Assembly (NCBI GenBank): GCA_016180285.1
Contig: JACPBO010000002.1
Span: forward strand, 15,570 to 79,569
Reading direction: 5' to 3'
Source of the DNA: Candidatus Woesearchaeota archaeon
GTDB lineage: Archaea > Nanobdellota > Nanobdellia > Woesearchaeales > JACPBO01
DNA: 64,000 nt
Made by a program: the position numbers and the translations under genes. The notes beneath the pieces were generated by a model. It was given only the letters and a program-made list of their open reading frames with translations. It did not search any database and had not been told where the DNA came from. This document shows, one piece after another, positions 38,191 through 56,442 of the stretch (positions are counted from its first letter, which is position 1; each line of letters opens with the position of its first letter).

Positions 38191-38244
38191 TTTACGTATT
38201 TCCAAAAGAAGTGTAGCTTTAAATATTTTTTCATAATTAAAAAT

Positions 38245-38392
38245 ACACACCCCCTTATTTCTATTGGAAACTATAGTTTTATTTTTTAGTTTTTTATTGT
38301 TATTTTATTATTTACTATATTGAAAATAAATATAAATATAATATAAAAACAAAAAAACATAAAAACAAACTCCATAAGAAATAAAGGGGTCC
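38245..38392. promoter_or_regulatory. Predicted replication origin (oriC): two inverted ORB-like elements flanking an AT-only DUE
   Basis: ORB-like 1 (bottom strand) at ~38247..38271: GTTTCCAATAGAAATAAGGGGGTGTG. ORB-like 2 (top strand) at ~38370..38391: CTCCATAAGAAATAAAGGGGT. Both fit the archaeal ORB pattern TCCA-N-GAAA-N-GGGG(T) and are in inverted orientation around a ~90-bp 100% A/T segment (38281..38369). Confidence 0.55.
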
Positions 38393-38488
38393 CACCAAAC
38401 ATTTCATTACTATATGATAGTCAAAAATAGAAACATTTAAATATATGTGTTGCTTTCTAAAGGAAATAAGGTGATGGGGAGTTGAAAA

Positions 38489-39307
38489 ATGATAGTTCAA
38501 AAAAGTTTTTTGAATAAGTTGAAGGATTTTGGTTTGAATAGTTATGAAGCTAAGTTATGGACGGCGTTGCTTTCTCGCGGCGTTTCTACTGCTGGCGAGT
38601 TAAGCGATATTGCCGGCGTTCCAAGAAGCAGAAGCTACGATGTTCTTGAAAGTTTAGAGAAAAAAGGATTTATAATTATGAAGGTGGGGAAACCAATCAA
38701 ATACCTCGCTGTAAAGCCGGAAGAAGTCGTTGATCGCGTTAAAAAAAGAATAAGGGAAGATGCAGTTAAGGAAGAGGAAATTCTCGAGGAGATCAAAAAA
38801 ACAAACACACTTAGTGAATTGAATCTATTGCACAAGCAGGGCATTGAGCTTGTCGATCCGACTGATTTAAGCGGCAGTATAAGAGGCAGAGACAATATCT
38901 ACAACCACCTCGATTTTATGATAAAGGGCGCTGAAAAATCCGTTGTTTTGGTGACAAGTGCAGATGGCCTTGTTAGAAAATCAAAAGAGCTGAGAAAAAC
39001 ACTGGAAAAAGCAAAAGAAAGGGGAGTTAAGATAAAGATAGCTGCGCCTTTGGGCAAAGAAGCGCAGGAAGCTTATAAAAATTTAAAAGGAATCGCAGAG
39101 CTTAAGCACATAAACGATCCGCAGGCAAGATTTGCTATTGTCGACGGCAAGAGCCTTTTGTTTATGTTGATGGATGACAAAAATGTCCACCCAAGCTACG
39201 ATGTTGCTGTTTGGGTTGCAACACCTTATTTTGCATCTGCATTTGAAAGCTTCTTCAACAATAGCTGGCAGAAACTGGATGCGGCTGAAAAGGCGCTTAA
39301 CAAATAA
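38489..39307 (+). CDS. TrmB-family transcriptional regulator
   Basis: N-terminal FGLNSYEAKLWTALLSRGVSTAGELSDIAGVPRSRSYDVLESLEKKGFI matches the TrmB HTH domain; SD aaGGTGAtgg upstream. Confidence 0.85.
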   Translation: MIVQKSFLNKLKDFGLNSYEAKLWTALLSRGVSTAGELSDIAGVPRSRSYDVLESLEKKGFIIMKVGKPIKYLAVKPEEVVDRVKKRIREDAVKEEEILEEIKKTNTLSELNLLHKQGIELVDPTDLSGSIRGRDNIYNHLDFMIKGAEKSVVLVTSADGLVRKSKELRKTLEKAKERGVKIKIAAPLGKEAQEAYKNLKGIAELKHINDPQARFAIVDGKSLLFMLMDDKNVHPSYDVAVWVATPYFASAFESFFNNSWQKLDAAEKALNK

Positions 39308-41601: not shown

Positions 41602-42033
41602 TTATTTTTGTTTTTTTATGATTTCTTGTAAAGTGTGACTGGCTTCTGAAATAATCCTTGGCTCCTCCATCTTATTTGGGAGTTTGACTATTATGCAATC
41701 AGGTAGTTTGCCTTTTAAAATGAAAATAATACTTCTATTAGAACCCATAAATAAAATATGTTTTTTTCTAAATTCTAAAACCGTGATGGGTGCTGGAAAA
41801 AGATTCTGATATTTTTGTTTCATTGCCATTTTTGCATCTTCCACATTGCATTCTTCAATAGCGGCGACATAGATTTCTGATGGATGAAGTTCTTCTCTGA
41901 TTATAAAAACATCACTTGGTTTAAGACCATACATCTTAAGAACAGTATAAACTGATTTTTTAACCCTTTCTTTGTCAATTTTTACATCTTTCAATAAATC
42001 ATCCAGTTGTTCTTCATTCATACATCTCACCAA
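41602..42033 (-). CDS. Hypothetical protein (143 aa)
   Basis: Clean ORF; no recognisable motif. Confidence 0.4.
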   Translation of the reverse strand: MVRCMNEEQLDDLLKDVKIDKERVKKSVYTVLKMYGLKPSDVFIIREELHPSEIYVAAIEECNVEDAKMAMKQKYQNLFPAPITVLEFRKKHILFMGSNRSIIFILKGKLPDCIIVKLPNKMEEPRIISEASHTLQEIIKKQK

Positions 42034-42144
42034 ATTAATGATTAATTGGCGCGTACTCTCAAGTTACATCCGTCAGCCATCTCCTTTCGGTAAGCTTGGG
42101 TGTTCACACGGTCATCATACACGCCAAAGACAACAGAATATGGT

Positions 42145-43242
42145 TCAATTTATAAGTTTACCCCTCTTCAAAAGTGCCTCTAACACTTCCTGCTTTTCTG
42201 AAGCATATGCAAACCCTATTTTATTATAGAATTTTAAGAGGTTTTCTTTTCCTTTGATATAAAATCTTCCACAAAATTCTCTGCCTTTCTGTTTGCGTAA
42301 TTGGATATGTGAAGTTGCAATGCCAAAATGAGCCAACATAGCTCTTATTTGATTTAGAAACTCAAGCAAGTTGGTCACATGGTTTTTGTTTTTGGATAAT
42401 ACAAACTGGATTCTCCATACGTTGTTTTGCGGTTTTGAACCTTCATTTCCATAAATTATCGACAAGAATGTTTTCTTAATTTTATCAGGGCCATTATAAA
42501 TCCAGTCCGGAATTAAAAATGGAGTGAATACCTTATTGCCGCATGGCACACCCAAATAAATAAGCAATTCAGCAAAACCTTTGCTGCAAAAAACAATTCT
42601 AAAGCAAAATTGGTTGTATTTTAGAGATAGATATTCTCCTTTAAAAATAGAATTGAAATACAATCTAAATTCAACAGCATCTTTATTTTGATTAAAATCA
42701 TACTCTGCTTGCTGTAAGTTTTTTCTTACATGGCCATCACCCATTAAGAAACCAATGTTGGTAACTAAAAAATTTAGAACATGTTCATCATAGAACAGAG
42801 TTAAACCATATTTCTTAACAAAACCAAACTCCCCTATTTCATCAAAATTTAGCTTATGGTTTATTTCTAGATTCTCAAATGTATCCTCAAGTATTAACTC
42901 TTTAATATTCTCTTTATGCTCTAGGTCTGAAGGGACCAAGTAATCATCGTATATTCTTCTCAGTTTTACTCTATTAGAGACGCTGTAAAAATATCCAGAC
43001 TTTAGTTGTGTTGGTGTTCTTATTATTTTATTTTTTGCGTAAAGCCTCGTCATTATTGTAGAAATTGCACTATTGCAAGTGTTGTCTTTATAAATTTCGT
43101 TATAGATATTAGCCATACTCTTAATACCAAAAACCATATCAGGATGTAGCATTAAAATATCATAAACTCTTTTGGATTTTGAACCAATTAACTCTAAATT
43201 CTTAATCTGCATTTTCTGATTGTTGGAGTTCATCTTACGCAC
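42145..43242 (-). CDS. HTH-containing protein with LAGLIDADG-like motifs (possible free-standing homing-endonuclease-like/DNA-binding protein)
   Basis: N-terminal wHTH-like KRVYDILMLHPDMVFGIKSMANIYNEI; central NIGFLMGDGHV and LSIIYGNEGSK resemble LAGLIDADG blocks; divergent from the palindrome-bearing intergenic region. Confidence 0.35.
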   Translation of the reverse strand: MRKMNSNNQKMQIKNLELIGSKSKRVYDILMLHPDMVFGIKSMANIYNEIYKDNTCNSAISTIMTRLYAKNKIIRTPTQLKSGYFYSVSNRVKLRRIYDDYLVPSDLEHKENIKELILEDTFENLEINHKLNFDEIGEFGFVKKYGLTLFYDEHVLNFLVTNIGFLMGDGHVRKNLQQAEYDFNQNKDAVEFRLYFNSIFKGEYLSLKYNQFCFRIVFCSKGFAELLIYLGVPCGNKVFTPFLIPDWIYNGPDKIKKTFLSIIYGNEGSKPQNNVWRIQFVLSKNKNHVTNLLEFLNQIRAMLAHFGIATSHIQLRKQKGREFCGRFYIKGKENLLKFYNKIGFAYASEKQEVLEALLKRGKLIN

Positions 43243-43342
43243 ACTCTTTTCTCCTTTTCATAGCAATTTCTCATTTAAATACCCTCTGTGCGCGCCTGTC
43301 CAGTGGGTTTGCCACCAATAAACCGATATATTTAAATCTTTA

Positions 43343-43440
43343 TACTTACAATGTAAGTAAAACTTAGAAAGATTATTAAACTATACTCACAATGTAAGTA
43401 AAAAACAGCAACATTTTTAATGAAATACTTACATTGACAG
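43343..43440. repeat. Three spaced copies of a 17-bp palindrome TACTTACA-A-TGTAAGTA (putative operator array)
   Basis: Perfect palindrome at 43343..43359; one-mismatch copy TACTCACA-A-TGTAAGTA at 43384..43400; half-site copy TACTTACA-T-TGACAG at 43426..43440. Centres ~41-42 bp apart; TATATATA box follows at 43441..43448, ~50 nt before the ATG at 43498. Confidence 0.6.
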
Positions 43441-43497
43441 TATATATAGGGAAAAATCAAGATTTTTAGTTAATAAAAGTATAGAAACTAAGGCATT

Positions 43498-43782
43498 ATG
43501 CCTTCAAAAAAAGAGAAAGGCCTTATTGAACGAAAAAAAGTCCATTTAAAGCCTAAAGAGTTGAAAGATAGACCTATTTCTTTTAGTCCATACTCTGAAT
43601 TGAAGATTCCTTCAACAATATTTCTTGACCGCGACGTAAGCATTCTTGAAGCGGTTGTTGAATATTTGAAAGATAAAGTCGGCATGACATATCACGAGAT
43701 TGCAGTTCTTCTTGAGCGGGATGATCGCACAATCTGGACCTCCTATAGCCGCGTAAAGAAAAAAAGAGTGAAGAATGTTTGA
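43498..43782 (+). CDS. Small sigma-70 region-4-like/LuxR-like HTH protein (94 aa)
   Basis: C-terminal MTYHEIAVLLERDDRTIWTSYSRVKKKR resembles the sigma-70 r4 HTH (xxEIAxxLgxsxxTVxxxxxRAxKK); paralog at 55315..55548; overlaps giant gene start by 8 nt. Confidence 0.55.
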   Translation: MPSKKEKGLIERKKVHLKPKELKDRPISFSPYSELKIPSTIFLDRDVSILEAVVEYLKDKVGMTYHEIAVLLERDDRTIWTSYSRVKKKRVKNV

Positions 43783-46700
43783 TCTGAAGAGAAAAAAAGA
43801 GGAGCAGAATGAGCTTGAAGATCTTGTTAGCAAGGACTATCATAGAATTGAAGAAGATAAAGTTAAAGAAAAAGCAATAAAGAAATACAAGCCTGAATTT
43901 GTGGTTGCTCTTTTATTGATTGTAGCATCAATGCTTATTTTCAGGGCCGCTTACACTGGCTTGTTTATTTATGGCGAGGCAGGTTATTCTAAAGAGCTTA
44001 ATTTGACATTTAATGAAACAGCAACTTACAATCTATTTTTAAACGCAAGCCCGCTTTCTTTAAAGCTTTCTGGCTCCGTAGTCGGGAATGGTTATGCTAA
44101 GGTTTATTTGTTGGATAATGGAATCAGAAAATTGATTGTTGATAGCTCTCAATTGCAAACTTCTTATGATTTAATAACTGCTTATGCTATTGCTGAAGAA
44201 TTTTTGAACGAAACAAATATTCCGGAGAATATTACAAACACAACTGAAGCAATAAACCAAACAACAAATGCGGCAGAGAACATTGCGGAAATTGCAAATC
44301 AAACAAATTTAACCGAAACAAGCCCGACTTTGCCTGAAAACATAACAGAACCCGCCAATCAAACAGAAAACATCGCAATAAATCGTGCTCCCGTATGGAT
44401 TTTTGATGCCGATTCATTTATTGTGGCTGGAAATTTAACAATAAACCTTTCGCAGTATTTTATTGATCTTGACAATGATTCTATTTCTTACATTGTTTCA
44501 GAGCCTGAAAACGTGCTTATTTTAAAAGAATTTGAAATGATAACCTTGGCGCCAGATGCAAATATCGTCGGGAATAGAACAATTAAGATATTTGCTTCTG
44601 ATCTAAAAAACACAACTGAAAAAGAAGTTACACTGGTTATTAACACAACAAAAGAGGCTGCTGAAACTGCTCCTGAAAACATAACAATTCCCGTAAAAGT
44701 GTTTGACAGCATTTGTGTTGATACGTGTTTCTTAACAGGCGTTGGCAGAAATATAACTTTATTGATCGAAATAGAGAATGCAACACTGAACTTAACAAAA
44801 TTAGAATATGATGCAAAACCTGAAAATATAACTGCCAATAACCCGCCGCAATGCAGCCTGATCCCAAATGTCAATATTTCTAAAAATGAGCTTTCTACAA
44901 TATGGCTGGATAAATACTGCTCAGATGCCAATGATGATACTTTGAGTTATGATGTTTCTCTTAGTTCAAAAGAAGTTGATACAATGATCACAAAAGATAT
45001 GGTTACGTTTATTCCGAGAAAGAATTTTGTCGGAACAACATTCATGTCCTTCGTAGTGAATGATTCTAAGAACATAACTTTCACAAATATAATTGTCATT
45101 AATGTAACAGGCAACATAACTGAGAAAAAAAGAAATGCAACGATTAATCTAAAAAACAATAAAAAAGAAAAAACAGGCAGTTATAGCTTAACAAACAACA
45201 GCGACGAAACATTTGATTTGGAGCTCAGCAATCTGCCTGGCTTTGGAGTTTTAGAGAAGAAAAAGGAATCCAGAATAAATATTAAAAAAATAAAAGAACT
45301 GAAAGACGCCGATGTTTTAATTGATGCAATAGAAGACAACAGAATAGGAACAGATGTATTTGCAATAAATGAAACCCTTGATTTTGAAAGCGCAGCAATA
45401 ACTTTAGCTAAGAATTCTGATGTGAATTCAGTGTTTTACTGCTCTGATTTTGATTTTGAAACCTTGTCTTGCTCAAATTGGCAGAAAACAGACATTCCAT
45501 TTACAGATAATGGAAATACAATAACATTCAATGTAACTCATTTCTCGGCTTATGCTGGCGGTTTGACAATAATAAATGTATACAGCCATCCTTCTTTATA
45601 TGGAAACTGGATAGTTGGCTTTAATACTACAGGAGCCGCTAATTTGACAATAACAGCTACAAGAGAGAGCAATTACACCAACATCTACACGAGATGGAGC
45701 AATGAAAGCGAAGATTCTGGATTGTACGATTTAAGATTTCTCGAAGTAAAGTGCGGCAATCAGACTATGAATTACGAATGGCAAGGAACAAACTGCTTTG
45801 AGCAGGAGTGCAGCGTATTTATTGCCAACTATTCATGTAATGAAACTGCGCAAGAGATAAGCAAAGTTTTGACGGCAAAAAGGCACGTCTTGAAGTTTGA
45901 GTTTGGCGGGCAGATTGCATATGCTTACAATGCCGTTGGAAACGAAAGCTCAGATTCAGGAACAGACGAGTGGAGGATGTTTGGCAGATACCTTAATCAG
46001 ACGCGTTATACAAACTCAGCAGCTCCTACAAATCTGGCTAATGCAAAGATTATAACATTTTCAAGTACAAGTACTATTCAGTCTTCTCCTGCTGTTGCCA
46101 ACGGCTATGTGTATGTTGGCAGTGATGATGCCAAGCTATACCAGCTTAATGCTTCTAATATCAGCCAGCAAGTAGCGAGTTTTTCAGCAGCCGGCGCTAT
46201 TTATTCCTCGCCTGCTGTTGCTGATGGCTATGTTTATATTCTGAATTACAATACAACAATATACCAACTCAATGCCTCAAATGTCAGCCAGAAGATAGCA
46301 AGCTTTTCAACTGGCGGAGGCTTTTATAATACACAATCTTCTCCTGTTGTTTCCAATGGCTTTGTCTATGTTGGAAGCTCGCTAGGAGTGTTATATCAGC
46401 TTAATGCATCCAATGTCAGCCAAAAAATAGCAAATTTCACAGCCGGCGATGGCATGTATACTGTGCCTGCTGTTGCCAATGGCTTCGTGTATGCAGGAAG
46501 CAATGATGCTAAATTATACCAGCTTAATGCATCCAATGTCAGCCAGCAGATAGCAAATTTCTCAGCCGGAGTCTTTTATTCTTCTGCTGCAGTTGCCAAT
46601 GGATTTGTATATGTGGGAAACGATGATGGTAATCTATACCAGCTTAACGCATCAAATGTCAGCCAAAAAATAGCAAATTATTCAACTGGCGGGGCCATTA

Positions 46701-48193
46701 GATCTTCACCTGCAGTTGCTAACGGCTATGTGTATGTTGGAAGCAACGATAACAGAACATATCAGCTTAATGCAACCAATGTTAGTTTGTTAATCGCAAG
46801 CTATACAGCAAATAATAACATCCAATCTTCTCCTGCTGTTACTGACAGTTATGTATTCATTGGCAGCTACGATGATAAGCTATACCAGCTTAATGCAACC
46901 AATATTAGCATATTGGTGTCAAGCTATACAACTAGCGGCGATGTTATCTCTTCTCCTGCAGTTGCTAATGGCTCTGTTTATGTTGGAAGTCTTGATTGGA
47001 AACTATACCAGTTTATATTGGATGTAACTTACCCATCCATCAACTTCACACAGCCGCCAACACCTCCTAATGGCACAACAACAAAAAACACCTCTGTCCA
47101 GATAAACATAAGCATTACAAATGCCTCTGATTTGGCAGAGTTCAAATGGAACTGGAACGGAACAAATTACACTTTCTACAACGCTTCTTTAGTATTGATG
47201 ATGAACTTCGACAATGTTTCTTCAATTGGAGAGAGTGCGACAAATGCCGTTGATGTCAGCAAATACGGAAATAATGGGACTCTTACAAATGGAGCTGTTT
47301 GGAATTGCAGTAGCGGAAAATATGGATGTGCCTTGCAATTCGATGGTATTAATGATTTAGTCAGTATTCCTGACAGCTCTAGTTGGGACTTTGGTAATCG
47401 TGATTTCACAGTGAATCTTTGGGTGAATTTCAAAAATCTTAGTTATGCCTCATTTATTGACCAATTTTGGTCTGTAAGAGCATGGGTTATCGGATATAAT
47501 GCAACTGCGTTATATTTCCGTTATAGTACAGACGGGACTACTGTTAACGGAGATCATACTGTTCCATGGTCCGCAAATAATAATACTTGGTACTACATTA
47601 CTGCTCTCCGCTCTGGATCAAATATTCGGCTTTATGTTGATGGCTCGCAAATTGGTTCTGACTTTAATGCAGGAACTGATGTAATTTATAATTCAAATAA
47701 GGCGCTTTGGGTAGGTTGCGCCCATACAGGGGGCGGTGGCGATACCCCGGGTTTTTGTCTCAACGGTTCAATCGACGAAATCCGCATCTGGAACAGAAGC
47801 CTAAGTGCAGCAGAAATTAACCAATCATACATGTCAAATCTGTACAAATACGACACAGACAAATGGGCGTTCTATACAAATCAGACTAATTTGACAAATG
47901 GAAGTTACACATATTTTGGTTATGTAAAAGATATAACTGGGAATTCAAACCAGACCGAAGTCAGAACATTGACAATAGGAAACACAGCGCCTACAGCTAC
48001 AAACATAATTCTAAATTCAACAGATTCGCTGAACAGGACAAATGGGACTTTACAAGGATTCTGGACTTTTTCAGATGCTGATGGCGACACGCAACAGAAT
48101 AATGAAACAATGTGGTACAACAACAGCGTAGAAATCGTAAGTTTGAGAAATAACAAAGAACGAAAACTGGACTTTCTCTGTAAGGGTCTATGA
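43775..48193 (+). CDS. Giant surface protein, N-terminal segment (1472 aa): signal-anchor, ~12 PQQ-like beta-propeller repeats, LamG/ConA-like lectin domain; likely 5' part of a frameshifted ~3850-aa gene
   Basis: N-terminal TM FVVALLLIVASMLIFRAAYTGLFIYG. Repeated SSPAVANG[YF]VYVGSxDxKLYQLNASNVSQ units (PQQ-like). LamG-like signature ...LYVDGSQIGS...IDEIRIWNRSLSAAEINQSY. Extremely rich in N-x-S/T sequons. Ends abruptly inside an FN3/Ig-like repeat also present in the downstream ORF. Confidence 0.8.
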   Translation: MFDLKRKKEEQNELEDLVSKDYHRIEEDKVKEKAIKKYKPEFVVALLLIVASMLIFRAAYTGLFIYGEAGYSKELNLTFNETATYNLFLNASPLSLKLSGSVVGNGYAKVYLLDNGIRKLIVDSSQLQTSYDLITAYAIAEEFLNETNIPENITNTTEAINQTTNAAENIAEIANQTNLTETSPTLPENITEPANQTENIAINRAPVWIFDADSFIVAGNLTINLSQYFIDLDNDSISYIVSEPENVLILKEFEMITLAPDANIVGNRTIKIFASDLKNTTEKEVTLVINTTKEAAETAPENITIPVKVFDSICVDTCFLTGVGRNITLLIEIENATLNLTKLEYDAKPENITANNPPQCSLIPNVNISKNELSTIWLDKYCSDANDDTLSYDVSLSSKEVDTMITKDMVTFIPRKNFVGTTFMSFVVNDSKNITFTNIIVINVTGNITEKKRNATINLKNNKKEKTGSYSLTNNSDETFDLELSNLPGFGVLEKKKESRINIKKIKELKDADVLIDAIEDNRIGTDVFAINETLDFESAAITLAKNSDVNSVFYCSDFDFETLSCSNWQKTDIPFTDNGNTITFNVTHFSAYAGGLTIINVYSHPSLYGNWIVGFNTTGAANLTITATRESNYTNIYTRWSNESEDSGLYDLRFLEVKCGNQTMNYEWQGTNCFEQECSVFIANYSCNETAQEISKVLTAKRHVLKFEFGGQIAYAYNAVGNESSDSGTDEWRMFGRYLNQTRYTNSAAPTNLANAKIITFSSTSTIQSSPAVANGYVYVGSDDAKLYQLNASNISQQVASFSAAGAIYSSPAVADGYVYILNYNTTIYQLNASNVSQKIASFSTGGGFYNTQSSPVVSNGFVYVGSSLGVLYQLNASNVSQKIANFTAGDGMYTVPAVANGFVYAGSNDAKLYQLNASNVSQQIANFSAGVFYSSAAVANGFVYVGNDDGNLYQLNASNVSQKIANYSTGGAIRSSPAVANGYVYVGSNDNRTYQLNATNVSLLIASYTANNNIQSSPAVTDSYVFIGSYDDKLYQLNATNISILVSSYTTSGDVISSPAVANGSVYVGSLDWKLYQFILDVTYPSINFTQPPTPPNGTTTKNTSVQINISITNASDLAEFKWNWNGTNYTFYNASLVLMMNFDNVSSIGESATNAVDVSKYGNNGTLTNGAVWNCSSGKYGCALQFDGINDLVSIPDSSSWDFGNRDFTVNLWVNFKNLSYASFIDQFWSVRAWVIGYNATALYFRYSTDGTTVNGDHTVPWSANNNTWYYITALRSGSNIRLYVDGSQIGSDFNAGTDVIYNSNKALWVGCAHTGGGGDTPGFCLNGSIDEIRIWNRSLSAAEINQSYMSNLYKYDTDKWAFYTNQTNLTNGSYTYFGYVKDITGNSNQTEVRTLTIGNTAPTATNIILNSTDSLNRTNGTLQGFWTFSDADGDTQQNNETMWYNNSVEIVSLRNNKERKLDFLCKGL
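46060..47000 (+). repeat. Tandem ~120-bp near-identical DNA repeats encoding PQQ-like blades
   Basis: Recurrent strings such as taccagcttaatgcatccaatgtcagcca at ~46390, 46510, 46630. Confidence 0.6.
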
Positions 48194-48230
48194 TGGAACA
48201 GACTGGAGCAGCTGGGTTAATTCCAGCGTT

Positions 48231-51200
48231 TTGGCAATTGCAAACACAATGCCTGTTGCATCAAACATTCAAACAAACAATACCTTGCCAATTACAAATG
48301 AATTTGTTGCATTTAATGCAACATGGACAGATGCCGATCTGAATGATTTAAAGGGCTATATTTTTTCATCCAACTTCAATGGAACTTGGGCGAATGAAAC
48401 ACCAATCTCTTTTGGCGGGACAACGAATTACAGCAATTATTCAAAGCAAGTTCCGTCAACTTATGGAGAATATCAATGGAGGATTTATGCTAATGATTCT
48501 GACGGGGCATGGAATGATACGGAGATACAATACATAACAATTATTTCAAATTCAAGCGAATGGCCAATGTTCCATCACAACATAGTGCATACAGGCCATA
48601 CTTCTTCAGCAAGTCCAACAATAAACAACACAAGATGGATTTTTATAACGCAGGGTTCAGCACAATCGTCGCCAGCTATTGTAAACGGGGTTGTTTACAT
48701 TGGATCTAACGACAACAGAACCTACGCATTAAATGCTTCAACAGGAGCCCATATCTGGAATTTCTCAACAAAAAATAGCGTAATATCTTCTCCTGCTGTT
48801 GCAAACAATATTGTTTATGTTGGATCGTATGATAACAACACTTATGCATTGAACGCTTCTACTGGGGCCCATATCTGGAATTTCTCAACCAATGGCAGCA
48901 TAGACTCTTCTCCAGCAGTTGTTAATGCCATAATGTATGTTGGCTCAAGGGATAAAAAGATTTATGCACTGAATGCGTCTACTGGAGCACATATTTGGAA
49001 CTTTACAACCGGCAATAGCATAATCTATTCTTCGCCAACAATTGCCAAAGGGATTTCATACATTGGCTCAAATGATGGCAAAACTTACGCATTAAATGCT
49101 TCAACAGGCGCTCACATCTGGAACTTTTCACCTTCCAGTACAGGCGTGGTTCCGACAACAATAGTCTTTAATGATGTTGCTTATACTGCAAGCAATAACT
49201 TATATGCATTGAACGCTTCCACTGGAGCGCATATTTGGAATTACTCGGCTGCCAGCGGATCAATTGAATCATCTCCGGCAATTGACAATGGCGTTGTGTA
49301 CCTTGGCGATTTATCTAATATGCTCAACATGGTTAATGCAACCAGCGGTGCATCTATAAGAAATGTAACAGTAGCTGATATGATAGATTTTTCTTCTCCA
49401 GCAATAGCAAATAGCATCATTTATTTCGGGGATATCTCTGGCAAGTTTTACGCAATAAATGCATCCAATGGGGTTAATGTTTGGAACTACACCAGCGGCA
49501 ACCAGCAAATAATATCCTCGCCCGCAATAGCAGATGGTGTTGTTTATGTTGGCGCCGATAACGGGATAATATATGCTTTCGGTTCAAACAGAGCGCCAAC
49601 AGCAACGAACATAATTTTGAATTCAACAGATCCCCAGAACAGGACAAACGGCACTTTAAGCGGCTTCTGGACGTTTTCCGAACAGGATTACAACGATACG
49701 CAGCAATTAAATGAAACAACATGGTATAACAACAGCGTAGAAGTTACGCAATTTAGAAACATAACATCCATAGGCAGAAATGCAACTAAAAATCAGAACT
49801 GGACTTTTTCAGTTAGAGTCTATGACGGAGAAGACTGGAGTAATTGGAGTAACTCTTCAACTATCACAATACAAAATACTGCTCCAACACAATCCACTCC
49901 AATCATAAACTCTTCAATGGGCTTGAATAAGACAAACGAAACATTATACTGCTTCAATCAGTCAACAGCCGACATAGATGGCGATGCAATATCAAACAAG
50001 ATAAGGTGGCTCAATAATTCCGCTGCAATCATCGCATTGGAAAATTTAACATCAATAAGCCATGGCAACACAACAAAGAACGAAAACTGGACTTGTGAAA
50101 TAACGCCTTTTGACGGAACTGCATACGGAACGGCATTAAACTCTTCAATTTTGACAATAGCAAATTTGGCCCCAACAGCAACAAACATAATTTTGAACTC
50201 ATCTATGAAGTTGAATAAGACAAATGAAACGCTTCAAGGATTCTGGACTTTTTCAGATGCTGATGGCGACACGCAACAGAATAATGAAACAATGTGGTAC
50301 AACAACAGCGTAGAAATCGTAAGTTTGAGAAATGACATAGATGGCGATACGATAACAAACAGAATAAGATGGCTCAATAATTCAATCGCTGTTGCATCGC
50401 TGGAAAACCAAACTTCAATTGGTCATGGCAACACAACAAAACTGCAGAACTGGACTTGCGAAGTAACACCTTATGATGGAACTGATCATGGAACAGCATT
50501 GAATTCTTCAATATTAACAATAGCAAACTCAATTTCGGCTACAAGCAATGTTACAACCTACCCAACACTCGCTTACAAAAACAACACTTTGAACTGCTCT
50601 GCTGTTTATAATGATGCAGACAATGATATCGGAACAGTTTATTTCAGCTGGTATAAAAATAATGCAAGGCAAAATAGTTATACAACTTCGCTTGTAGCAG
50701 GCAATGGGGCTGGAGGGTATGCTGAAGGCAATGTTACTAGTGCAATGTTTAATTATCCCGGTCACCTTGCTGTTGACTCAGCAGGAAACACACTTTATCT
50801 GACAGATTACTTCAATGCCAAAGTTAGAAAAGTAAATTTAACAACAAATACAACCTCGCTTATTTCAGGCGGTTTTGTTGGTTCTTGGGGCATTGTTTTG
50901 TTCAATGATACGACACTTTATGTCAGCGACTGGGATAATTGCACAATACAAAAAATAAATTTAGCAATGAATGCGACTTCTACTGTAGCAGGAAATGGCA
51001 CTTGCGGATATGCAGAAGGAACAGGAAGCAGCGCAATGTTTAACAACCCAAGTGGCCTTGCTGTAAATTCAAACGGCACTTTCTTGTATGTTGCAGATTA
51101 CAGCAATAACAGAATAAGAAGAATTGATTTAACCACAAACACAACATCTCTGATCGCAGGCAATGGAACAGCAGGATACACAGAAGGTGTGGGAAATCAA

Positions 51201-54200
51201 ACAAAGTTTAACAATCCTTACGCAGCCACAATTAGTCCGGACAATCATTACTTGTACATCTCAGACTCAGGGAGTCATAGGATCAGACGCATTGATTTAA
51301 CCACAAACACAACATCTCTGATCGCAGGCAATGGAACAAGAGGATATCTGGAAGGAACAGGAATTAATGCAATGCTTAATGGCCCTGATCAAACATCGAT
51401 GAATTCAGAAGGAACAATGCTTTATTTCATTGAACCATCGGGCAATAGAGTCAGGGCAATCAATTTAACCACAAACACAACCTTGCTTGTTGCAGGCAAT
51501 GGAACTCCCGACTATTTGGAAGGCAGTTTTATCAATGTAATGGTTTCTGGGGAGGGTCTTGTTTCAAACCCAAGCGGAACGAAACTTTACATATCTGATA
51601 GCAATAACAACAGAATTCGCGTCATCAATCTAAATAACTCATACGACGCTACAGTTGCCAATGTTACAAGCGGAACATTAGCATGGACAAACATTTTTGT
51701 GCCCTCATCTGCATTAACCAAGAATGACAACTGGACTTGCAGCGCAATAGCATATGATGGAACCATATTTAGCAATTGGGTAAATTCCAGCAGCGTAATG
51801 ATCAACAACTCAGCACCAATCCTGAACTCTTCAATCTCAGCTCAAAACTGGAGTGAAGGCGGATCAGCAACAATCAATCTTTCGCTTTATTTCACAGACA
51901 TAGATAATGACAATCTGATTTATAATTCAACAATGCCGTCCGACATCACAATATCTATAAACCAGACATCAAAGATTGCAGCATTAACAGCAGTCGGCTC
52001 GTGGTATGGTGAAAATTTCATAACATTCAATGCAACAGACGGCTCTTTAAATGCAACAAGCAACAACATAACATTGACCCTCTCAAATATAATAAGATGC
52101 GGTGATGGAATAAAAGAAGGCTCTGAAGAATGCGATGACGGCAATACAGTAAGCGGCGATGGGTGTTCTGCATCATGCGCAATAGAAGGTAGCGGCGGTG
52201 GAGGGTCGGGAGGAGGCGGCGGAGGAGTAACCCCGCCAGCGCAGCCTACTCAGCCGCCGCCTGAACAGCCGCCTCAGCCAACTCCTGAAGAGCAGCCGCC
52301 AGAACTTCCTCCAGAACAGCCGCCGCAAGTGGAATTTCCGGAAACCATAACTCAGCCGCAGACAATAATAATAGCAGGAGCTACATCAACCATCAACACA
52401 GTACCGTGCTTCAACTACACAGAAAACAAAACACTTGCATTAAAGCAAAGCAATATAACTAAAGCGATGAATATCCCAAAAGGCTACTCTGTTTTAATCA
52501 ATCCCTTCAGCCCGGACTGCGCAAAAGGATCTTTAACTTTAACATTCAACATTCCAAATAACTATGTTGATGTAAACGCATTAAAATGCAAAGGCGATGA
52601 ATGCTCCCCGGCAATAATAGAGGAAACAACAAAGCTGAAATGCGGCGGGAAAATAGTGAAGGAATTCAGGCGAAACACATCATACCTGGAGCCAATATTA
52701 ATGCCTATCAACATTACAAAAACTGACATGATTATAAAATATGAAAAAGATACTATTGAAAGCGGAAAATACAAAATAAAATTCTTGAATGAAATCAACC
52801 AGAAAGTCAGCATTTCAATGCCTTCTGAAGCAGTAAGAGAGCCAGAAAACACAAACTTGAAGATTATAGCAACTCCTTTGATTGTAACATTCGAAAACAG
52901 AACAGCAATCAATGCAGTTATCTCGTTGCCTTACATCTTGGGCAAAAACATTGAAAATGACAGCATTGCAATATACATTAAAATAAATGAAACATGGAAC
53001 CATATAGGCGGCGACATAAATTATGAAGAAAACAAAATAACAGCAACAATGAATAATTTGGAAGAATTCTTGGACGAAAACAACCAGGCAACAATAGCCG
53101 TAATGGGGATTATCTGCTTATACTGCGAAAAATCTGAATTAAATAAGGTTTATGATCCTAAAACAAGCAGGGAAGCAGTAATTCTGGTTCATGGCTTTGA
53201 AAGAAGCCCGGAAAGATTCAATGACATAATAAATGACATCAAATTAACAAGGCAGCCATGGCAGACATGGACATTCGCATACCCTTCTTCAAAAACAATA
53301 GAGGAAAATGGAAAGCAATTTGCAGAGCTGCTCGAGCTTAACATCAACGAATATGATAACCTCTACTTTGTTGCGCATTCATTAGGCGGGCTAATAACGC
53401 AGCAGGCGCTTTATTACGGCTATGAGCATAATTACAGCTTTGTAAATAAGGCAAGAAAGGCAGTTTTAATAGCATCGCCGAACAAAGGATCTATCTCAGA
53501 AGGAGTTTACAGAAATTTATATAATTTCCTTATGAACAGCAAGACAGCGGAATTGTTCAACATAAAGGGGGCCGTGGTCAAAGAATTAGTCTACGGCAAA
53601 GCAATCCCAGAAGTTCCGGGTATGGAATACAAGGTAATAGCCGGAACAAAAAGCTACGGCTTTGTAAAAATAACAAAAAGCAATGATGGCTTAGTAACAG
53701 TTGAAAGCGCGCAGACAGTTGGTGGAAAGATAATAAATAACAGCTGCGAGAATTACTGGGCCATCAATGTAACGCATACAGATATTCTGGATAATATTGA
53801 ATCAAAGCAGATCATAGAAAGGATAATCGCAGAGGAAGTTGCCAAAGTTGTCGGAAGCGGAAAATCCCTTTTAGGCAGCAATCAATATATAGAATTGAAT
53901 ATCCCGGAATGCAGTTATGAAGACACATATGTTATTGTCGGCAAAGAAATAAAGGAAGAAAAATTGCCGGACATAACAGGATGCAGCTGCGGAAATGGCT
54001 ATTGCGGCCTGGATGAAACAGCAGCAAGCTGTCCGCAAGACTGCGCAAGAATAATTTCCAAGGAAAACATTGAGCTTATAGCGTTGCTGGCATTGGCTGT
54101 TGTGTTGTTGATGTCTTTAATGGCGGCATTAACAGCGCTTTACAAGAAGATAAGAAGGCACAAGATAGGAAGGCCATTGAGATACACATTACTTACTTTA

Positions 54201-55325
54201 ATAACTGCAGGCGCAGCAATATACCTTGCAAAGAGCTATTTTGTTGACGACAAATATCAGTTTTTAGGCAATGCAGTTGCAATGATTTTGGCTTTGGCTG
54301 TTTTCTTCATTCTGTTCTTCTTCTCATCAAAGTTGCTTAACTTGATTTTAAAGCACACAAGGATAAAGCAGGCTAAAATCCCAATCAAAGCTAAACCGAA
54401 ATTGCAGCATAAACTATTGCCTGATTTCAAAAATCTCATCAAAGTCCTGCACGAAAATCTGGCAATCCGGCTGCGAAACTATGAAAATAAAAGAAAATTA
54501 TTGAAGTCATTAAAAGAAAAGAAGCTTCAGGAATTAAGAGCCAAAAAAGAATTAGAGAGAAAAAGAAGAGCAGCAGAGCAGGAGAAGGTAAGGCTCTTAA
54601 AAGAGCAGGAAAGAATAAGAAAACTGGAAGAGCAGGAAAGACTTAAGAAATTAGAAGAAGAAAGAAAGAAAAGAGAGCTTGAAGAAAAAGAAAGATTAAA
54701 AACATTTAAAGAAATAGAAAAACAAAGAATTCTGGAAGACATAAGAAAATTAAAAGCAATAAAAACCAAGGTTTCTGATGCGGCTATTCTGCTCAAAGAG
54801 AATGTCAATAAGGCAAAACAGCTCTATCTTGAGATTCTTGAGAATTACAAAAAGCTTGCTGCAGGCAAGAGAAAAGATGTTTACAATGAAGTAATCGGCT
54901 TGTATGATAAACTCAAAGAAGCAGCAAGGCTTGAAAAATACATTAAAAATACATTAAACGCAGTTATTGATAAGAAACTTACAATTGATCAGTTAAAATC
55001 TGCATTGAGGCAGAAAGGATGGAATAAAGACGCCATAGAAGCGGCATTGGCAGCAGCAAAGCAGGAATTCTACAGAGAGAGAATAAAAGAAGTAACAGAC
55101 AAGATTGAGGCTGCAAAGAAAGAATACTGCAAGCCAATCTACAACAACATCATAGATGTATATGCATATCTTGGCCTAGATGATCTATTTGAGGCAAAGA
55201 GGCTGTATCTGAGAACTCTAGAACTCTATGCCAGATCGCCGTCTTATGTTCAAGCTGAAGTTTACAATGACTTGCAGAAGCTCTATCGCCTGCTGTTCAA
55301 GAGAGGAATGGGGAATGCCAAATAA
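48231..55325 (+). CDS. Giant surface protein, C-terminal segment (2364 aa): PQQ and NHL beta-propellers, Ig/FN3-like repeats, Cys-rich module, Pro-rich linker, PGAP1-like alpha/beta-hydrolase domain, CGNGYCG stalk, TM, coiled-coil K/E-rich cytoplasmic tail
   Basis: No N-terminal signal peptide (starts at a TTG inside a repeat). PQQ-like SSPAIVNGVVYIGSNDNRTYALNASTGAHIWNF x~8. NHL-like GNGTxGYxEG...FNNPxGLAV...YVADxxNNRIRRIDLTTNTTSLIAGNGT x~5. CGDGIKEGSEECDDGNTVSGDGCSASC. PPAQPTQPPPEQPPQPTPEEQPPELPPEQPP. Lipase-like VILVHGF...FVAHSLGG...IASPNKGS. CSCGNGYCGLDETAASCPQDC then TM IALLALAVVLLMSLMAALTALY. Coiled coil KKLQELRAKKELERKRRAAEQEK... Tail motif LTIDQLKSALRQKGWNKDAIEAAL. Confidence 0.8.
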   Translation: MAIANTMPVASNIQTNNTLPITNEFVAFNATWTDADLNDLKGYIFSSNFNGTWANETPISFGGTTNYSNYSKQVPSTYGEYQWRIYANDSDGAWNDTEIQYITIISNSSEWPMFHHNIVHTGHTSSASPTINNTRWIFITQGSAQSSPAIVNGVVYIGSNDNRTYALNASTGAHIWNFSTKNSVISSPAVANNIVYVGSYDNNTYALNASTGAHIWNFSTNGSIDSSPAVVNAIMYVGSRDKKIYALNASTGAHIWNFTTGNSIIYSSPTIAKGISYIGSNDGKTYALNASTGAHIWNFSPSSTGVVPTTIVFNDVAYTASNNLYALNASTGAHIWNYSAASGSIESSPAIDNGVVYLGDLSNMLNMVNATSGASIRNVTVADMIDFSSPAIANSIIYFGDISGKFYAINASNGVNVWNYTSGNQQIISSPAIADGVVYVGADNGIIYAFGSNRAPTATNIILNSTDPQNRTNGTLSGFWTFSEQDYNDTQQLNETTWYNNSVEVTQFRNITSIGRNATKNQNWTFSVRVYDGEDWSNWSNSSTITIQNTAPTQSTPIINSSMGLNKTNETLYCFNQSTADIDGDAISNKIRWLNNSAAIIALENLTSISHGNTTKNENWTCEITPFDGTAYGTALNSSILTIANLAPTATNIILNSSMKLNKTNETLQGFWTFSDADGDTQQNNETMWYNNSVEIVSLRNDIDGDTITNRIRWLNNSIAVASLENQTSIGHGNTTKLQNWTCEVTPYDGTDHGTALNSSILTIANSISATSNVTTYPTLAYKNNTLNCSAVYNDADNDIGTVYFSWYKNNARQNSYTTSLVAGNGAGGYAEGNVTSAMFNYPGHLAVDSAGNTLYLTDYFNAKVRKVNLTTNTTSLISGGFVGSWGIVLFNDTTLYVSDWDNCTIQKINLAMNATSTVAGNGTCGYAEGTGSSAMFNNPSGLAVNSNGTFLYVADYSNNRIRRIDLTTNTTSLIAGNGTAGYTEGVGNQTKFNNPYAATISPDNHYLYISDSGSHRIRRIDLTTNTTSLIAGNGTRGYLEGTGINAMLNGPDQTSMNSEGTMLYFIEPSGNRVRAINLTTNTTLLVAGNGTPDYLEGSFINVMVSGEGLVSNPSGTKLYISDSNNNRIRVINLNNSYDATVANVTSGTLAWTNIFVPSSALTKNDNWTCSAIAYDGTIFSNWVNSSSVMINNSAPILNSSISAQNWSEGGSATINLSLYFTDIDNDNLIYNSTMPSDITISINQTSKIAALTAVGSWYGENFITFNATDGSLNATSNNITLTLSNIIRCGDGIKEGSEECDDGNTVSGDGCSASCAIEGSGGGGSGGGGGGVTPPAQPTQPPPEQPPQPTPEEQPPELPPEQPPQVEFPETITQPQTIIIAGATSTINTVPCFNYTENKTLALKQSNITKAMNIPKGYSVLINPFSPDCAKGSLTLTFNIPNNYVDVNALKCKGDECSPAIIEETTKLKCGGKIVKEFRRNTSYLEPILMPINITKTDMIIKYEKDTIESGKYKIKFLNEINQKVSISMPSEAVREPENTNLKIIATPLIVTFENRTAINAVISLPYILGKNIENDSIAIYIKINETWNHIGGDINYEENKITATMNNLEEFLDENNQATIAVMGIICLYCEKSELNKVYDPKTSREAVILVHGFERSPERFNDIINDIKLTRQPWQTWTFAYPSSKTIEENGKQFAELLELNINEYDNLYFVAHSLGGLITQQALYYGYEHNYSFVNKARKAVLIASPNKGSISEGVYRNLYNFLMNSKTAELFNIKGAVVKELVYGKAIPEVPGMEYKVIAGTKSYGFVKITKSNDGLVTVESAQTVGGKIINNSCENYWAINVTHTDILDNIESKQIIERIIAEEVAKVVGSGKSLLGSNQYIELNIPECSYEDTYVIVGKEIKEEKLPDITGCSCGNGYCGLDETAASCPQDCARIISKENIELIALLALAVVLLMSLMAALTALYKKIRRHKIGRPLRYTLLTLITAGAAIYLAKSYFVDDKYQFLGNAVAMILALAVFFILFFFSSKLLNLILKHTRIKQAKIPIKAKPKLQHKLLPDFKNLIKVLHENLAIRLRNYENKRKLLKSLKEKKLQELRAKKELERKRRAAEQEKVRLLKEQERIRKLEEQERLKKLEEERKKRELEEKERLKTFKEIEKQRILEDIRKLKAIKTKVSDAAILLKENVNKAKQLYLEILENYKKLAAGKRKDVYNEVIGLYDKLKEAARLEKYIKNTLNAVIDKKLTIDQLKSALRQKGWNKDAIEAALAAAKQEFYRERIKEVTDKIEAAKKEYCKPIYNNIIDVYAYLGLDDLFEAKRLYLRTLELYARSPSYVQAEVYNDLQKLYRLLFKRGMGNAK

Positions 55326-55548
55326 AACAATAAAAACAGAGGAAAGAATGTCCAAAGTAGGCATACCAGTCTCCATATTAAAGGACAGAAAATTAAGCGC
55401 ATTAGAAGCGATAAGCGAATATCTTAAAGAAACCCTTAATATGAACTATCATGAAATTGCTGTTTTGATGAACAGAGATGATAGAACCATCTGGACTGTT
55501 TATAGCAGGGCAAAGAAAAAAAGAAATACAGCATTAGCCAATAATTGA
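55315..55548 (+). CDS. Small sigma-70 region-4-like HTH protein, paralog of 43498..43782
   Basis: MPNKTIKTEERMSKVGIPVSILKDRKLSALEAISEYLKETLNMNYHEIAVLMNRDDRTIWTVYSRAKKKR; ~60% identical to the upstream paralog over the C-terminal 45 aa; ATG 11 nt before the giant-gene stop. Confidence 0.55.
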   Translation: MPNKTIKTEERMSKVGIPVSILKDRKLSALEAISEYLKETLNMNYHEIAVLMNRDDRTIWTVYSRAKKKRNTALANN

Positions 55549-55791
55549 TTTCTCGCGCGAGATATAATCTGATCTTGATATCTTGTTGTTGATGTATTGT
55601 ATCTGTAGGTCTTTTAAGGAATCTCCTGTAGCAGCAGTTTTGCAGATTTCAGCAGCTTGCGTTGGCTGCAGATCTGTTGATATACTTTGTATATAATTCT
55701 TGCCAAGGCTCATAACTATTGCTCCAAGCGCTATTGCAAAAGCTATCAGTAAAACAGTTGCTATCAACGGTGATAATGCCCTCTTGTTCAT
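55534..55791 (-). CDS. Archaeal type IV pilin (DUF361-type class III signal peptide), 85 aa
   Basis: MNKRALSPLIATVLLIAFAIALGAIVM: canonical archaeal prepilin N-terminus (KRA-LSPLIATVLLIA) recognised by PibD/EppA-type peptidases; 3' end overlaps the convergent HTH gene by 15 nt. Confidence 0.75.
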   Translation of the reverse strand: MNKRALSPLIATVLLIAFAIALGAIVMSLGKNYIQSISTDLQPTQAAEICKTAATGDSLKDLQIQYINNKISRSDYISREKSIIG

Positions 55792-56093
55792 TTTTTAAGA
55801 CCTTTTACGTATTCTTTCTGCAAAAGAACCATATAAATAAAAAGAGCGATCATCACCATCTCAAAAATCGGAAAGATAAAAGATGGAAAAGAAAACACAC
55901 CCAAAGATCTTAAAACAGTCATGATCTCTTCCACAACAAATATGAGCACAACTATGAACAGCAATTGCCAGGGCTTTTGAAAAATAAGCTTATTTGGTAT
56001 TCTGAATAAATTATAAAACAAGACAAGCAATATCGTGACAAATGCCAGATTATAAAGCGGCGCCACCAATGCAATCGATTCATATATTCCCAT
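55788..56093 (-). CDS. Small polytopic membrane protein, paralog B
   Basis: 101 aa, 3 predicted TM helices; shares ...LxxxWxxLxxVLIFxVEEIxxxLRSxGxxSxP... with 56095..56394; 4-nt overlap with the pilin gene. Confidence 0.5.
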   Translation of the reverse strand: MGIYESIALVAPLYNLAFVTILLVLFYNLFRIPNKLIFQKPWQLLFIVVLIFVVEEIMTVLRSLGVFSFPSFIFPIFEMVMIALFIYMVLLQKEYVKGLKK

Positions 56094-56094
56094 T

Positions 56095-56394
56095 TTAGAC
56101 CTTTGTTGTGTATTTGCTTACAATTATCTGCTGCGTTAAAGCATAAATCAAAAACCCGAGCATTAGTGACGGAACAACATGAGTTAAGTGCGGAGTTGAG
56201 TAAATGCCGAAAGATCTTAATGCCCCTAAAATCTCTTCAACTGCGAACAAGATCAAAACCATTATCAAAGGACGCCATGCCCTTAAATGTTTCTTGGCCC
56301 CGGATATCTTAAAAAGAGTGCTTGCTGCAATGCCAGCAACAATTATCAAAAAGACATTTGCGATCTGCAGTACGCCTTCAGCATATCCTATCAT
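56095..56394 (-). CDS. Small polytopic membrane protein, paralog A
   Basis: 99 aa; HLRAWRPLIMVLILFAVEEILGALRSFGIYSTP aligns with QKPWQLLFIVVLIFVVEEIMTVLRSLGVFSFP of the downstream paralog. Confidence 0.5.
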   Translation of the reverse strand: MIGYAEGVLQIANVFLIIVAGIAASTLFKISGAKKHLRAWRPLIMVLILFAVEEILGALRSFGIYSTPHLTHVVPSLMLGFLIYALTQQIIVSKYTTKV

Positions 56395-56442
56395 CTATTC
56401 ACCTCTTTTTAATATTGCCTCACCATATATATTTAAATATTG

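Follow-up and report, generated by a model that had tools for sequence, protein, structure and literature searches.

In a 64,000-nucleotide (nt) stretch of contig JACPBO010000002.1 from a Candidatus Woesearchaeota archaeon (hereafter the window), two small paralogous genes, which we call p1 and p2, encode helix-turn-helix (HTH) proteins and lie at the two ends of a giant surface-protein gene. As far as sequence comparison can tell, they belong to a lineage-wide regulator-operator unit tied to giant surface proteins and are not a peculiar pair, and the family most likely acts as a dedicated control module for these giant, presumed host-contact proteins. The putative operator is a 17-bp palindrome, TACTTACAWTGTAAGTA, which occurs in arrays upstream of operon-leading family genes. 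In the reading that we favour and hold to be probable, p1 and p2 are autoregulatory, probably repressing, DNA-binding proteins of the p1-giant-p2 operon.

p1, 43498..43782, plus strand: leading 94-amino-acid (aa) sigma4-like HTH gene; the first ~35 residues form a basic N-terminal extension and the rest one canonical domain
p2, 55315..55548, plus strand: trailing 77-aa sigma4-like HTH gene, overlapping the stop of the giant gene by 11 nt and without an operator of its own

A paralogous pair of sigma region 4-like proteins

The first-pass annotation of this DNA had placed paralogous open reading frames (ORFs) at these positions and had quoted a motif common to them, and we find both the ORFs and the motif in the two translations. 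The overlaps with the giant coding region that it gave, 8 nt at the 5' end and 11 nt at the 3' end, are likewise present: the giant ORF has its ATG at 43775 and p1 its stop codon at 43780-43782, and the ATG of p2 (55315) precedes the end of the giant stop codon (55325). In the frame of p2 the longest ORF begins at 55228 (106 aa); the 77-aa start used here is supported by independent gene calls on three other contigs, which give an identical protein, and by its agreement with the family alignment. p1 and p2 could be aligned by BLASTP with 37 identities over 58 positions (64%; E-value 8e-27), and tblastn searches of the window with both queries did not find a third copy, all other matches having E-values above 0.2. 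Both are separate small proteins without a transmembrane (TM) segment.

The Pfam profile Sigma70_r4_2 (PF08281) matches p1 with an E-value of 0.002 (18.2 bits) and p2 with an E-value of 0.001 (19.1 bits), below the gathering threshold of 25.7 bits that defines formal membership; some relatives have precomputed PF08281 matches, and 32 of 47 family members match the profile at E<0.01, the best with an E-value of 7.8e-6. An AlphaFold2 model of p2, based on the 47-sequence family alignment, is all-helical with a predicted local distance difference test score (pLDDT) of 83.9. Foldseek searches against the PDB initiated using this model returned sigma region 4 structures for nearly all of the top ~50 matches, including the DNA-bound 2h27 and 6jhe, together with a few LuxR-type regulators (RcsB, ranked 38th and 50th). 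None of the E-values is better than 0.02, a weakness to be expected when the domain has 60 residues. The GerE profile (PF00196) did not match p1 or p2 at E<=1, and a sequence search of the PDB did not find a relative. These weak but consistent similarities suggest that p1 and p2 adopt a sigma-70 region 4-like HTH fold in a domain of ~55 aa, in agreement with the earlier proposal of an HTH resembling sigma-70 region 4 or LuxR. Sigma region 2 was not found in Pfam and NCBIfam scans of p1 and p2 or in a Pfam scan of the 47 members, and, among multi-domain and fused members, the sequences read consist of repeats of one region 4-like unit. Judged by this domain content, the family proteins are not sigma factors, because region 2 is found nowhere in the family. 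An IS30-type transposase HTH, the name given in one source, was also considered and rejected, as the family proteins have no catalytic domain and related loci keep the leading or trailing placement beside surface-protein genes.

The family comprises 114 close relatives in a protein collection clustered at 90% identity, 211 confirmed loci among GTDB species representatives, and 2,169 clusters at 50% identity, of which 1,940 have E<=1e-10. With a family of 2,169 clusters, and with Sigma4/LuxR-like HTHs already known in archaea, the suggestion that such a fold is unusual as a stand-alone small archaeal protein no longer stands. Record titles of the members name Woesearchaeota, Nanoarchaeota or Nanoarchaeia. 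A block of metagenome-assembled genomes (MAGs) labelled "Methanosarcinales", which includes a complete 774-kb chromosome, also holds family members; we take that label to be a placeholder, and the family appears to be confined to Woesearchaeota/Nanoarchaeota. The conserved core reads IPxSIFxDRxxSxLEAxVEYLKDxxxLSYHEIAVLLNRDDRTIWTxYxRAKKKR, and p1 and p2 both contain the canonical DNA-reading helix RDDRTIWTxYSRxKKKR. Family proteins have one to four tandem copies of the domain, and at least two genomes hold two family loci. An attempt to separate leading and trailing copies into ortholog groups by BLAST of 150 domain sequences gave no separation, the domain being too short and too conserved.

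A putative palindromic operator downstream of TATA-like elements

Where chance would give 0.2 matches to the palindrome in the window, three are present, and these form one array, at the promoter of p1, with the sites spaced 41-42 bp apart.

Unit 1, 43330..43359, plus strand: TATA-like ATTTAAAT at 43330-43337; palindrome TACTTACAATGTAAGTA at 43343-43359, no mismatches
Unit 2, 43372..43400, plus strand: TATA-like ATTATTAA at 43372-43379; palindrome TACTCACAATGTAAGTA at 43384-43400, one mismatch, beginning 41 nt after site 1
Proximal unit, 43400..43442, plus strand: A-rich stretch resembling a B recognition element (BRE); TATA-like ATTTTTAA at 43413-43420; degenerate palindrome TACTTACATTGACAGTA at 43426-43442, two mismatches

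Close relatives differ by whole units of 41-43 bp, with two sites in L162, three in the window and four in L166; unit 2 is missing from L162, L166 has one extra unit, and the proximal unit is kept in both. Sites 1 and 2 also stand behind TATA-like octamers, as do 33 of 100 distal units across loci, and the array of the window reads as a tandem repeat of promoter-operator units.

Association of the palindrome with the family extends well beyond the window. Its core has 197 matches in 1.21 Mb of sequence from 81 sources, 148 of them within 600 nt upstream of family genes, regions that make up 4.8% of the scanned sequence; shuffled sequence gives 42 core matches in total. All 17 positions of the operator are 85-99% conserved, and arrays of 2-12 copies are present upstream of family genes in dozens of species. 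In a reciprocal, protein-blind scan of metagenome contigs for two palindromes 7-37 nt apart, 59 loci were found, of which 27 have a family gene with at least two sites directly upstream and one more has a family gene near the array. The complete family genes at the scanned arrays have canonical DNA-reading helices only, with the exception of L103, and some of the scan loci are satellite-like repeats. At six loci of bacterial origin (L110, L111, L116, L136, L143 and L145; GC content 0.59-0.68), pairs of the same 13-bp palindrome, 21-31 bp apart, lie beside TetR-family genes, apparently by unrelated convergence. In viral contigs the 17-mer has 22 isolated single matches and no arrays, which we judge to be at chance level. 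The modal operator spacing is 41-46 bp; the impression that they fall on multiples of 10.5, as in helical phasing, was given up after a Rayleigh test (98 spacings; period 10.5, p = 0.24).

When 35 proximal sites are aligned, an A-rich stretch followed by TTTAWATA appears at positions -14 to -7 from the site, within one mismatch in 24 of the 35, and this arrangement matches an archaeal BRE/TATA. Assuming the usual distance of about 26 nt from the centre of the TATA box to the transcription start, the 17-bp site covers roughly -17 to -1. The start codon follows the site by 0-20 nt in many loci, for example in TACTTACATTGTAAGTA-TTG, which encodes the MVLAK... N-terminus of database proteins. Geometry at site 3 of the window agrees with the consensus of the 35 proximal sites and predicts a transcription start at ~43442-43446, with a leader of ~55 nt. 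In the window and across the 35 loci, then, the operator lies upstream of its own gene and between the TATA element and the predicted start. We had considered TATATATA at 43441-43448 as the TATA box and rejected it, as the alignment of proximal sites puts the BRE/TATA upstream of the site.

Operator symmetry varies with protein architecture

The type of site upstream of a family gene varies with the domain architecture of the protein that it encodes.

Single-domain proteins, operon-leading: at least two palindromes in 23 of 25; no asymmetric sites
Two canonical domains, operon-leading: at least two palindromes in 10 of 13; essentially no asymmetric sites, and no locus with at least two
Class H proteins (~165-200 aa): almost no palindromes; at least two asymmetric sites in 19 of 33
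Canonical genes within operons (after giant genes): no palindromes and no asymmetric sites

In class H proteins an altered first recognition helix (RNEIALAVTYRNAKKK) is followed by a canonical second domain. Their sites, TACTTAYATRATAT, are all forward-oriented and retain the half-site TACTTACA, with a background of 0.03 per 450 nt. A third arrangement is found in the clade with fused tails, in which domain types alternate and the giant genes are preceded by two to four forward copies of ACAYAWATARTAAGTA. This sequence is asymmetric and keeps TAAGTA, and its last copy touches the ATG of the fused giant gene. Operator symmetry follows protein architecture, which is the pattern expected if the canonical domain reads the half-site TACTTACA. 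It is also unlikely that the palindromes act as RNA hairpins, since two other clades have operators that lack this symmetry.

Association with giant genes and fusion to giant membrane proteins

Linkage was assessed at 80 related loci with 10-kb flanks, using our own ORF calls and a hidden Markov model (HMM) of the family, which together gave 93 family genes. The next same-strand ORF is of at least 1000 aa for 29 of the 93, and many of these run off the flank at over 3,300 aa. Background ORFs reach this length in 66 of 921 cases, giving an odds ratio of 5.9 (p = 2e-10) that is conservative in that the background count includes the giant genes themselves. Nine of the 93 lie directly after an ORF of at least 1000 aa, and 41 overlap the next gene by 4 nt. 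Placement beside giant surface genes in related genomes, which the first-pass annotation had named as a check, is thus strongly conserved, and it is reinforced by fusions: the placements that recur are upstream of a giant gene, downstream of one, or fused to the C-terminus of the giant protein. The bracketing seen in the window does not recur as a unit, since a second family gene after the giant was found at none of the six related loci where the giant following a family gene ends within the fetched DNA. Where a trailing copy follows a giant gene, the 5' end of that giant lies beyond the 10-kb flank.

Trailing genes in L004, L028 and L038 follow giants with C-terminal TM helices and long charged tails. 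At L029 and L031 the giant before the trailing gene has a charged tail, but a TM helix was not detected within its final 500 aa; at L012, L016, L053 and L065 the giant ahead of the trailing gene terminates in an immunoglobulin (Ig)-like domain. Two single-domain family genes, consecutive or one gene apart, follow the giant in L016 (10007..10431), L038 (3283..3667) and L053 (5172..6956), and in L016 a palindrome sits between the two.

Among the best 150 family representatives, at least 16 are proteins of 655-5919 aa. Six representative sequences were read, namely five long proteins and P0115 (307 aa), a stand-alone protein with four repeats. The long ones include fused proteins of 1704-5919 aa in which two to four HTH repeats form the very C-terminal end, immediately preceded by a TM helix and an RKRKK stop-transfer stretch (for example, ...GAWTIRILMVALAFRRKRKKDKERNYVIPISIF...). 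HTH and TM segments thus occur in one polypeptide in the relatives P0118, P0123, P0137, P0145 and P0263, an arrangement absent from p1 and p2, and one fused protein is present on two independent contigs among archaeal genes. In other lineages a giant protein has this domain as its own cytoplasmic tail at the C-terminus, which suggests that p2 is a detached version of such a tail.

The giant gene of the window

The first-pass annotation had described a single giant gene bracketed by p1 and p2. One giant locus does lie between them, but it reads as two ORFs in different frames.

Giant gene, 5' part, 43775..48193, plus strand: 1472 codons; basic N-terminus, TM helix and sequon-rich ectodomain
Giant gene, 3' part, 48147..55325, plus strand: frame open from 48147; first start codon at 48231 (48231..55325, 2364 aa)
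Frameshift junction, 48147..48160, plus strand: +1 shift needed (equal to a 1-nt insertion) in A-rich GAGAAATAACAAAGAAC; one repeat domain is split

The end of the first ORF and the start of the second frame together rebuild a repeat domain (DADGDTQQNNETMWYNNSVEIVSLRN followed by TKNENWTFSVRVYDGTDWSSWVNSSVLAIANTMP) with the pattern D-x-DGD...W-x-NN...W-x-F-x-V...DG...I-x-N-x-x-P, an intact copy of which is present further along the giant protein. Because the two ORFs share this one split domain, intact elsewhere in the protein, they are best read as a single gene of ~3,850 codons interrupted by a 1-nt frameshift at ~48147-48160. This may be a true mutation, or it may be an assembly error, given that the gene contains near-identical internal repeats. 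Identical 17-aa stretches, DADGDTQQNNETMWYNN, are encoded at 48080..48130 and ~50250..50300, ~2.2 kb apart; they make misassembly possible and weaken a biological reading of the frameshift. The site is A-rich, but neither a long homopolymer nor a simple repeat, and the contigs of the relatives compared (L162, L166 and L163) do not extend to the junction.

The giant protein has a short, basic N-terminus, a TM helix at residues 42-56 and an ectodomain of ~3,400 aa with 5-6 N-glycosylation sequons per 100 aa (5.8 in the 5' part). PQQ-type beta-propeller and laminin-G-like domains are present in the 5' part of the ectodomain, and PQQ and NHL propellers with Ig-like and Cys-rich repeats in the 3' part; a murein transglycosylase domain was not found in this protein. 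C-terminal TM helices (~54051-54311) are followed by a K/E-rich coiled-coil tail of ~330 aa with zero sequons, which we infer to be cytoplasmic. The protein may function as an adhesin. DPANN archaea are thought to be host-attached, and giant surface proteins are prime candidates for the contact. At 43898..43960 the gene encodes a TM-adjacent motif (...MLIFRAAYTGLFIYG); an N-terminal TM helix followed by a motif of the [I/Y]TG[F/L][A/V] type is found in 23 of 75 proteins right after family genes (at loci that include L003, L005-L007, L009, L014, L017, L018, L023 and L052), against 36 of 808 background ORFs, and may be a lineage-specific signal or processing motif.

Proposed autorepression and its alternatives

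We propose that the canonical domain reads the half-site, and that p1 homodimers, p2 homodimers or p1/p2 heterodimers would bind the 17-bp palindrome; either kind of dimer is expected on the three palindromes of the window because both proteins carry the canonical reading helix. An occupied proximal site would block recruitment of RNA polymerase, the upstream sites may contribute cooperativity, and p1 and p2 would in this way repress their own, presumably co-transcribed, operon of p1, giant surface protein and p2. Translation of p1 would be coupled to the start of the giant gene and that of p2 to its end. p1 would be made from the 5' end of the transcript, and the output of the operon might be tied to the amount or state of the giant protein via the p2-type tail, which would give p2 a role beyond dosage. 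Negative autoregulation is favoured because the operator lies between the TATA element and the start, the position at which archaeal repressors block polymerase recruitment, and within this proposal repression is to our minds the likelier sign of regulation.

Several observations weigh against autorepression by p1 and p2. At about 12 DPANN-like loci an array is present but a family gene beside it is not; these orphan arrays lie before giant ORFs (L122, L135 and L139), pilin-like small proteins (L149), a tryptophanyl-tRNA synthetase (TrpRS) gene and other genes. In L015 and L023 a second array precedes an operon of RIO kinase, KH-domain protein and topoisomerase VI (RIO kinase-KH-TopoVI), so the sites are not exclusive to one operon type and another factor could bind them. 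The covariation rests on few clades (palindromic, class H and fused) and perhaps reflects three independent events. In the window itself, the proximal site departs furthest from the palindrome, with two mismatches, and lies 55 nt from the ATG, and the start site is only predicted; nothing separates the roles of p1 and p2; and the giant gene is frameshifted, which could mean that the module controls a pseudogene in this genome, or that the assembly is at fault.

As to their positions, the second arrays occupy 4150-4530 in L015 (seven copies) and 4496-4530 in L023 (two copies), between a divergent DnaG-like gene and the operon, whose RIO kinase, KH-domain protein and topoisomerase VI subunits B and A were assigned by eye from N-terminal sequences. 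In L153 a four-site array (1465-1580) lies between the 3' ends of convergent genes, beside a Trm5-FEN1 pair, where a promoter role is not obvious; the same Trm5-FEN1 synteny is found just downstream of p2 in the window.

A possible but doubtful alternative is that the HTH proteins physically link promoter DNA to the cytoplasmic end of the giant protein, whether for signalling (host contact changing DNA binding, or proteolysis freeing the HTH), for co-translational insertion or in a centromere-like role, with p2 docking on the coiled-coil tail. The fused giants, with their HTH repeats after a TM helix and one of them recovered on two independent contigs, argue for such a link, as do the operator-like repeats that abut the start codons of fused genes, the trailing genes of L004, L028 and L038, whose preceding giants have TM helices near the C-terminus and long charged tails, and the 330-aa tail without sequons in the window. 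However, p1 and most family members are free-standing and lie ahead of the giant gene, and a site between TATA and start suits transcriptional control. Neither a protease nor a partition NTPase is conserved nearby; ParA/ParM-type partition NTPases were not found among the Pfam-scanned ORFs adjoining the module in the window or the genes called in L162 and L166. Tethering of this kind is compatible with autorepression and does not exclude it.

Rather unlikely, in our estimate, is the proposal that giant surface proteins are one-protein transmembrane signalling devices whose HTH, fused as a cytoplasmic tail or supplied by a coupled mini-protein such as p2 docking on the tail, reads the operator at their own promoter and possibly at other surface-protein promoters. 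Were it true, host contact or the assembly state of the ectodomain would feed back directly on transcription, and a membrane-held repressor could still reach the chromosome in a cell of a few hundred nanometres. Membrane-tethered transcription control of this sort would be new for archaea and would account for the 'sigma factors without anti-sigma factors' of DPANN genomes.

Quite improbably, the arrays are bound by another factor, or are duplicated promoter units without a dedicated repressor, and the HTH proteins act elsewhere. The orphan arrays, the arrays before a housekeeping operon and the TATA-like element that accompanies each unit of the window and 33 of 100 distal units are consistent with this, but no other regulator is conserved beside the arrays (TrmB, ~4 kb distant, is peculiar to the window), the symmetry of the sites changes with the architecture of the HTH proteins in three clades, and family genes could serve orphan arrays in trans, as at least two genomes hold two family loci.

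The first-pass annotation had further suggested that p1 and p2 act as an activator/anti-activator pair or as a switch of surface-antigen expression; this model, with the switch taken as bistable, we now consider very unlikely. Two paralogs at opposite ends of one operon, operator units that number two, three and four among close relatives and could tune expression, and a frameshift in an A-rich stretch would be in keeping with it. Yet both paralogs have the same canonical recognition helix and fold, with no feature of antagonism in either, and the operator lies downstream of TATA in repressor geometry, whereas typical archaeal activators bind upstream; in addition, bracketing is seen nowhere else where the fetched DNA could show it, and the frameshift lies outside any long homopolymer or simple repeat. 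That the proteins are true sigma or sigma-like initiation factors acquired from bacteria is extremely improbable, for although some members are named 'sigma24 family protein' in databases and sigma-70 factors are listed as prevalent in Woesearchaeota (PMC8204110), they have region 4 only, in one to four copies, their predicted targets are palindromes after an archaeal-type BRE/TATA, and the window encodes archaeal replication proteins.

Neighbouring genes in the window

Genes for PolD, Orc1/Cdc6, TrmB, a PAN-like AAA ATPase, FEN1 and Trm5 are present in the window; this gene content and the relatives of the small proteins agree in pointing to a DPANN archaeon of the Woesearchaeota type. Between the PAN-like AAA gene and the p1 promoter, the minus-strand interval 41602..43242 holds a LAGLIDADG-domain ORF (365 aa) and a 143-aa ORF. 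The matching interval is empty in the close relative L162 and occupied in L166 by a HEPN/nucleotidyltransferase pair and a dCMP deaminase, and this spot beside the operator array looks like a variable insertion site. On the other side of the module, an 85-aa minus-strand ORF (55534..55791) converges on p2 and covers 15 nt of its 3' end; it starts with MNKRALSPLIATVLLIAFAIALGA, which we take to be an archaeal class III (type IV pilin-like) signal peptide. Two further small minus-strand ORFs without Pfam matches follow it (55788..56093 and 56095..56394), and the trio is also called on contigs L163-L165. At 36967..38489 the Orc1/Cdc6 gene adjoins the PolD genes and is divergent from TrmB, with an intergenic region of 240 nt that could contain a replication origin. 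PADLOC profiles did not match the proteins of the module, PHROGs gave noise only (E>0.03), and an Rfam scan of 42900-56600 returned one sub-threshold spurious match only.

Comparison with known systems

The small helical HTH of sigma-70 region 4, or domain 4 of extracytoplasmic function (ECF) sigma factors (PF08281), is the same fold as that of p1 and p2 and gives their best profile and structure matches. Unlike sigma-70 factors, the family has neither region 2 nor a bacterial polymerase context, its domain stands alone or in two to four tandem copies, and its predicted target is a palindrome after an archaeal TATA box instead of a -35 element. Castelle et al. 2021 (PMC8204110) reported sigma-70 factors (fam00359) as prevalent in Woesearchaeota, with no anti-sigma factors found and the mechanism unclear. 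fam00359 is probably the p1/p2 family, given the same lineage and the same Pfam-type annotation, though that report has no operator, link to giant genes or fusions. Giant surface proteins have also been described in DPANN archaea, as large proteins of Woesearchaeota and Pacearchaeota (PMC8204110) and as nanohaloarchaeal 'giant proteins' (PMC10266531), and the giant gene of the window is akin to these, encoding thousands of residues with membrane anchors and with propeller, lectin-like and Ig-like domains. In the searchable literature we found no paper that contains the operator 13-mer or links woesearchaeal HTH proteins to giant genes. The published puzzle of woesearchaeal 'sigma-70 factors' (PMC8204110) becomes a concrete, testable module, now defined by a protein family, a 17-bp operator with its half-site, a promoter geometry, and a genetic and sometimes covalent link to giant proteins. 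The operator motif can be used for regulon mapping in any Woesearchaeota genome, and the small size of the proteins puts direct binding and structural work within reach even without a culture of the organism.

The closest working analogue among HTH regulators, by general knowledge, is the GerE/LuxR-FixJ group (GerE, RcsB), of which RcsB appears among the structural matches. GerE of Bacillus is a stand-alone tetrahelical HTH of ~75 aa that binds inverted repeats as a dimer, and the perfect 17-bp palindrome suggests that p1 and p2 may do likewise. Unlike GerE, the present family is archaeal and has no GerE profile match, its operators are in arrays, and its domain can be fused to giant membrane proteins.

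In operator position the likeness is to the archaeal repressors MDR1, LrpA and Phr, which bind between TATA and start site and block polymerase recruitment. The putative operator has the same position with respect to BRE/TATA and start, and autoregulation is likewise expected; those repressors come from unrelated families (DtxR, Lrp/AsnC and winged HTH), and the p1/p2 family differs in having no ligand-binding domain.

The fused members recall ToxR, CadC and TcpP, membrane-anchored one-component regulators with an N-terminal winged HTH and a small periplasmic sensor. In both, a cytoplasmic DNA-binding domain sits on a TM protein with an external part, a likeness in logic only, whereas the fused forms described here have two to four C-terminal sigma4-like repeats after an ectodomain of 1,300-5,500 aa, and p1 and p2 are not fused. 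Compared with these systems, the module is most likely of the autoregulated HTH repressor type, and in some lineages it is, unusually, joined covalently to giant membrane proteins.

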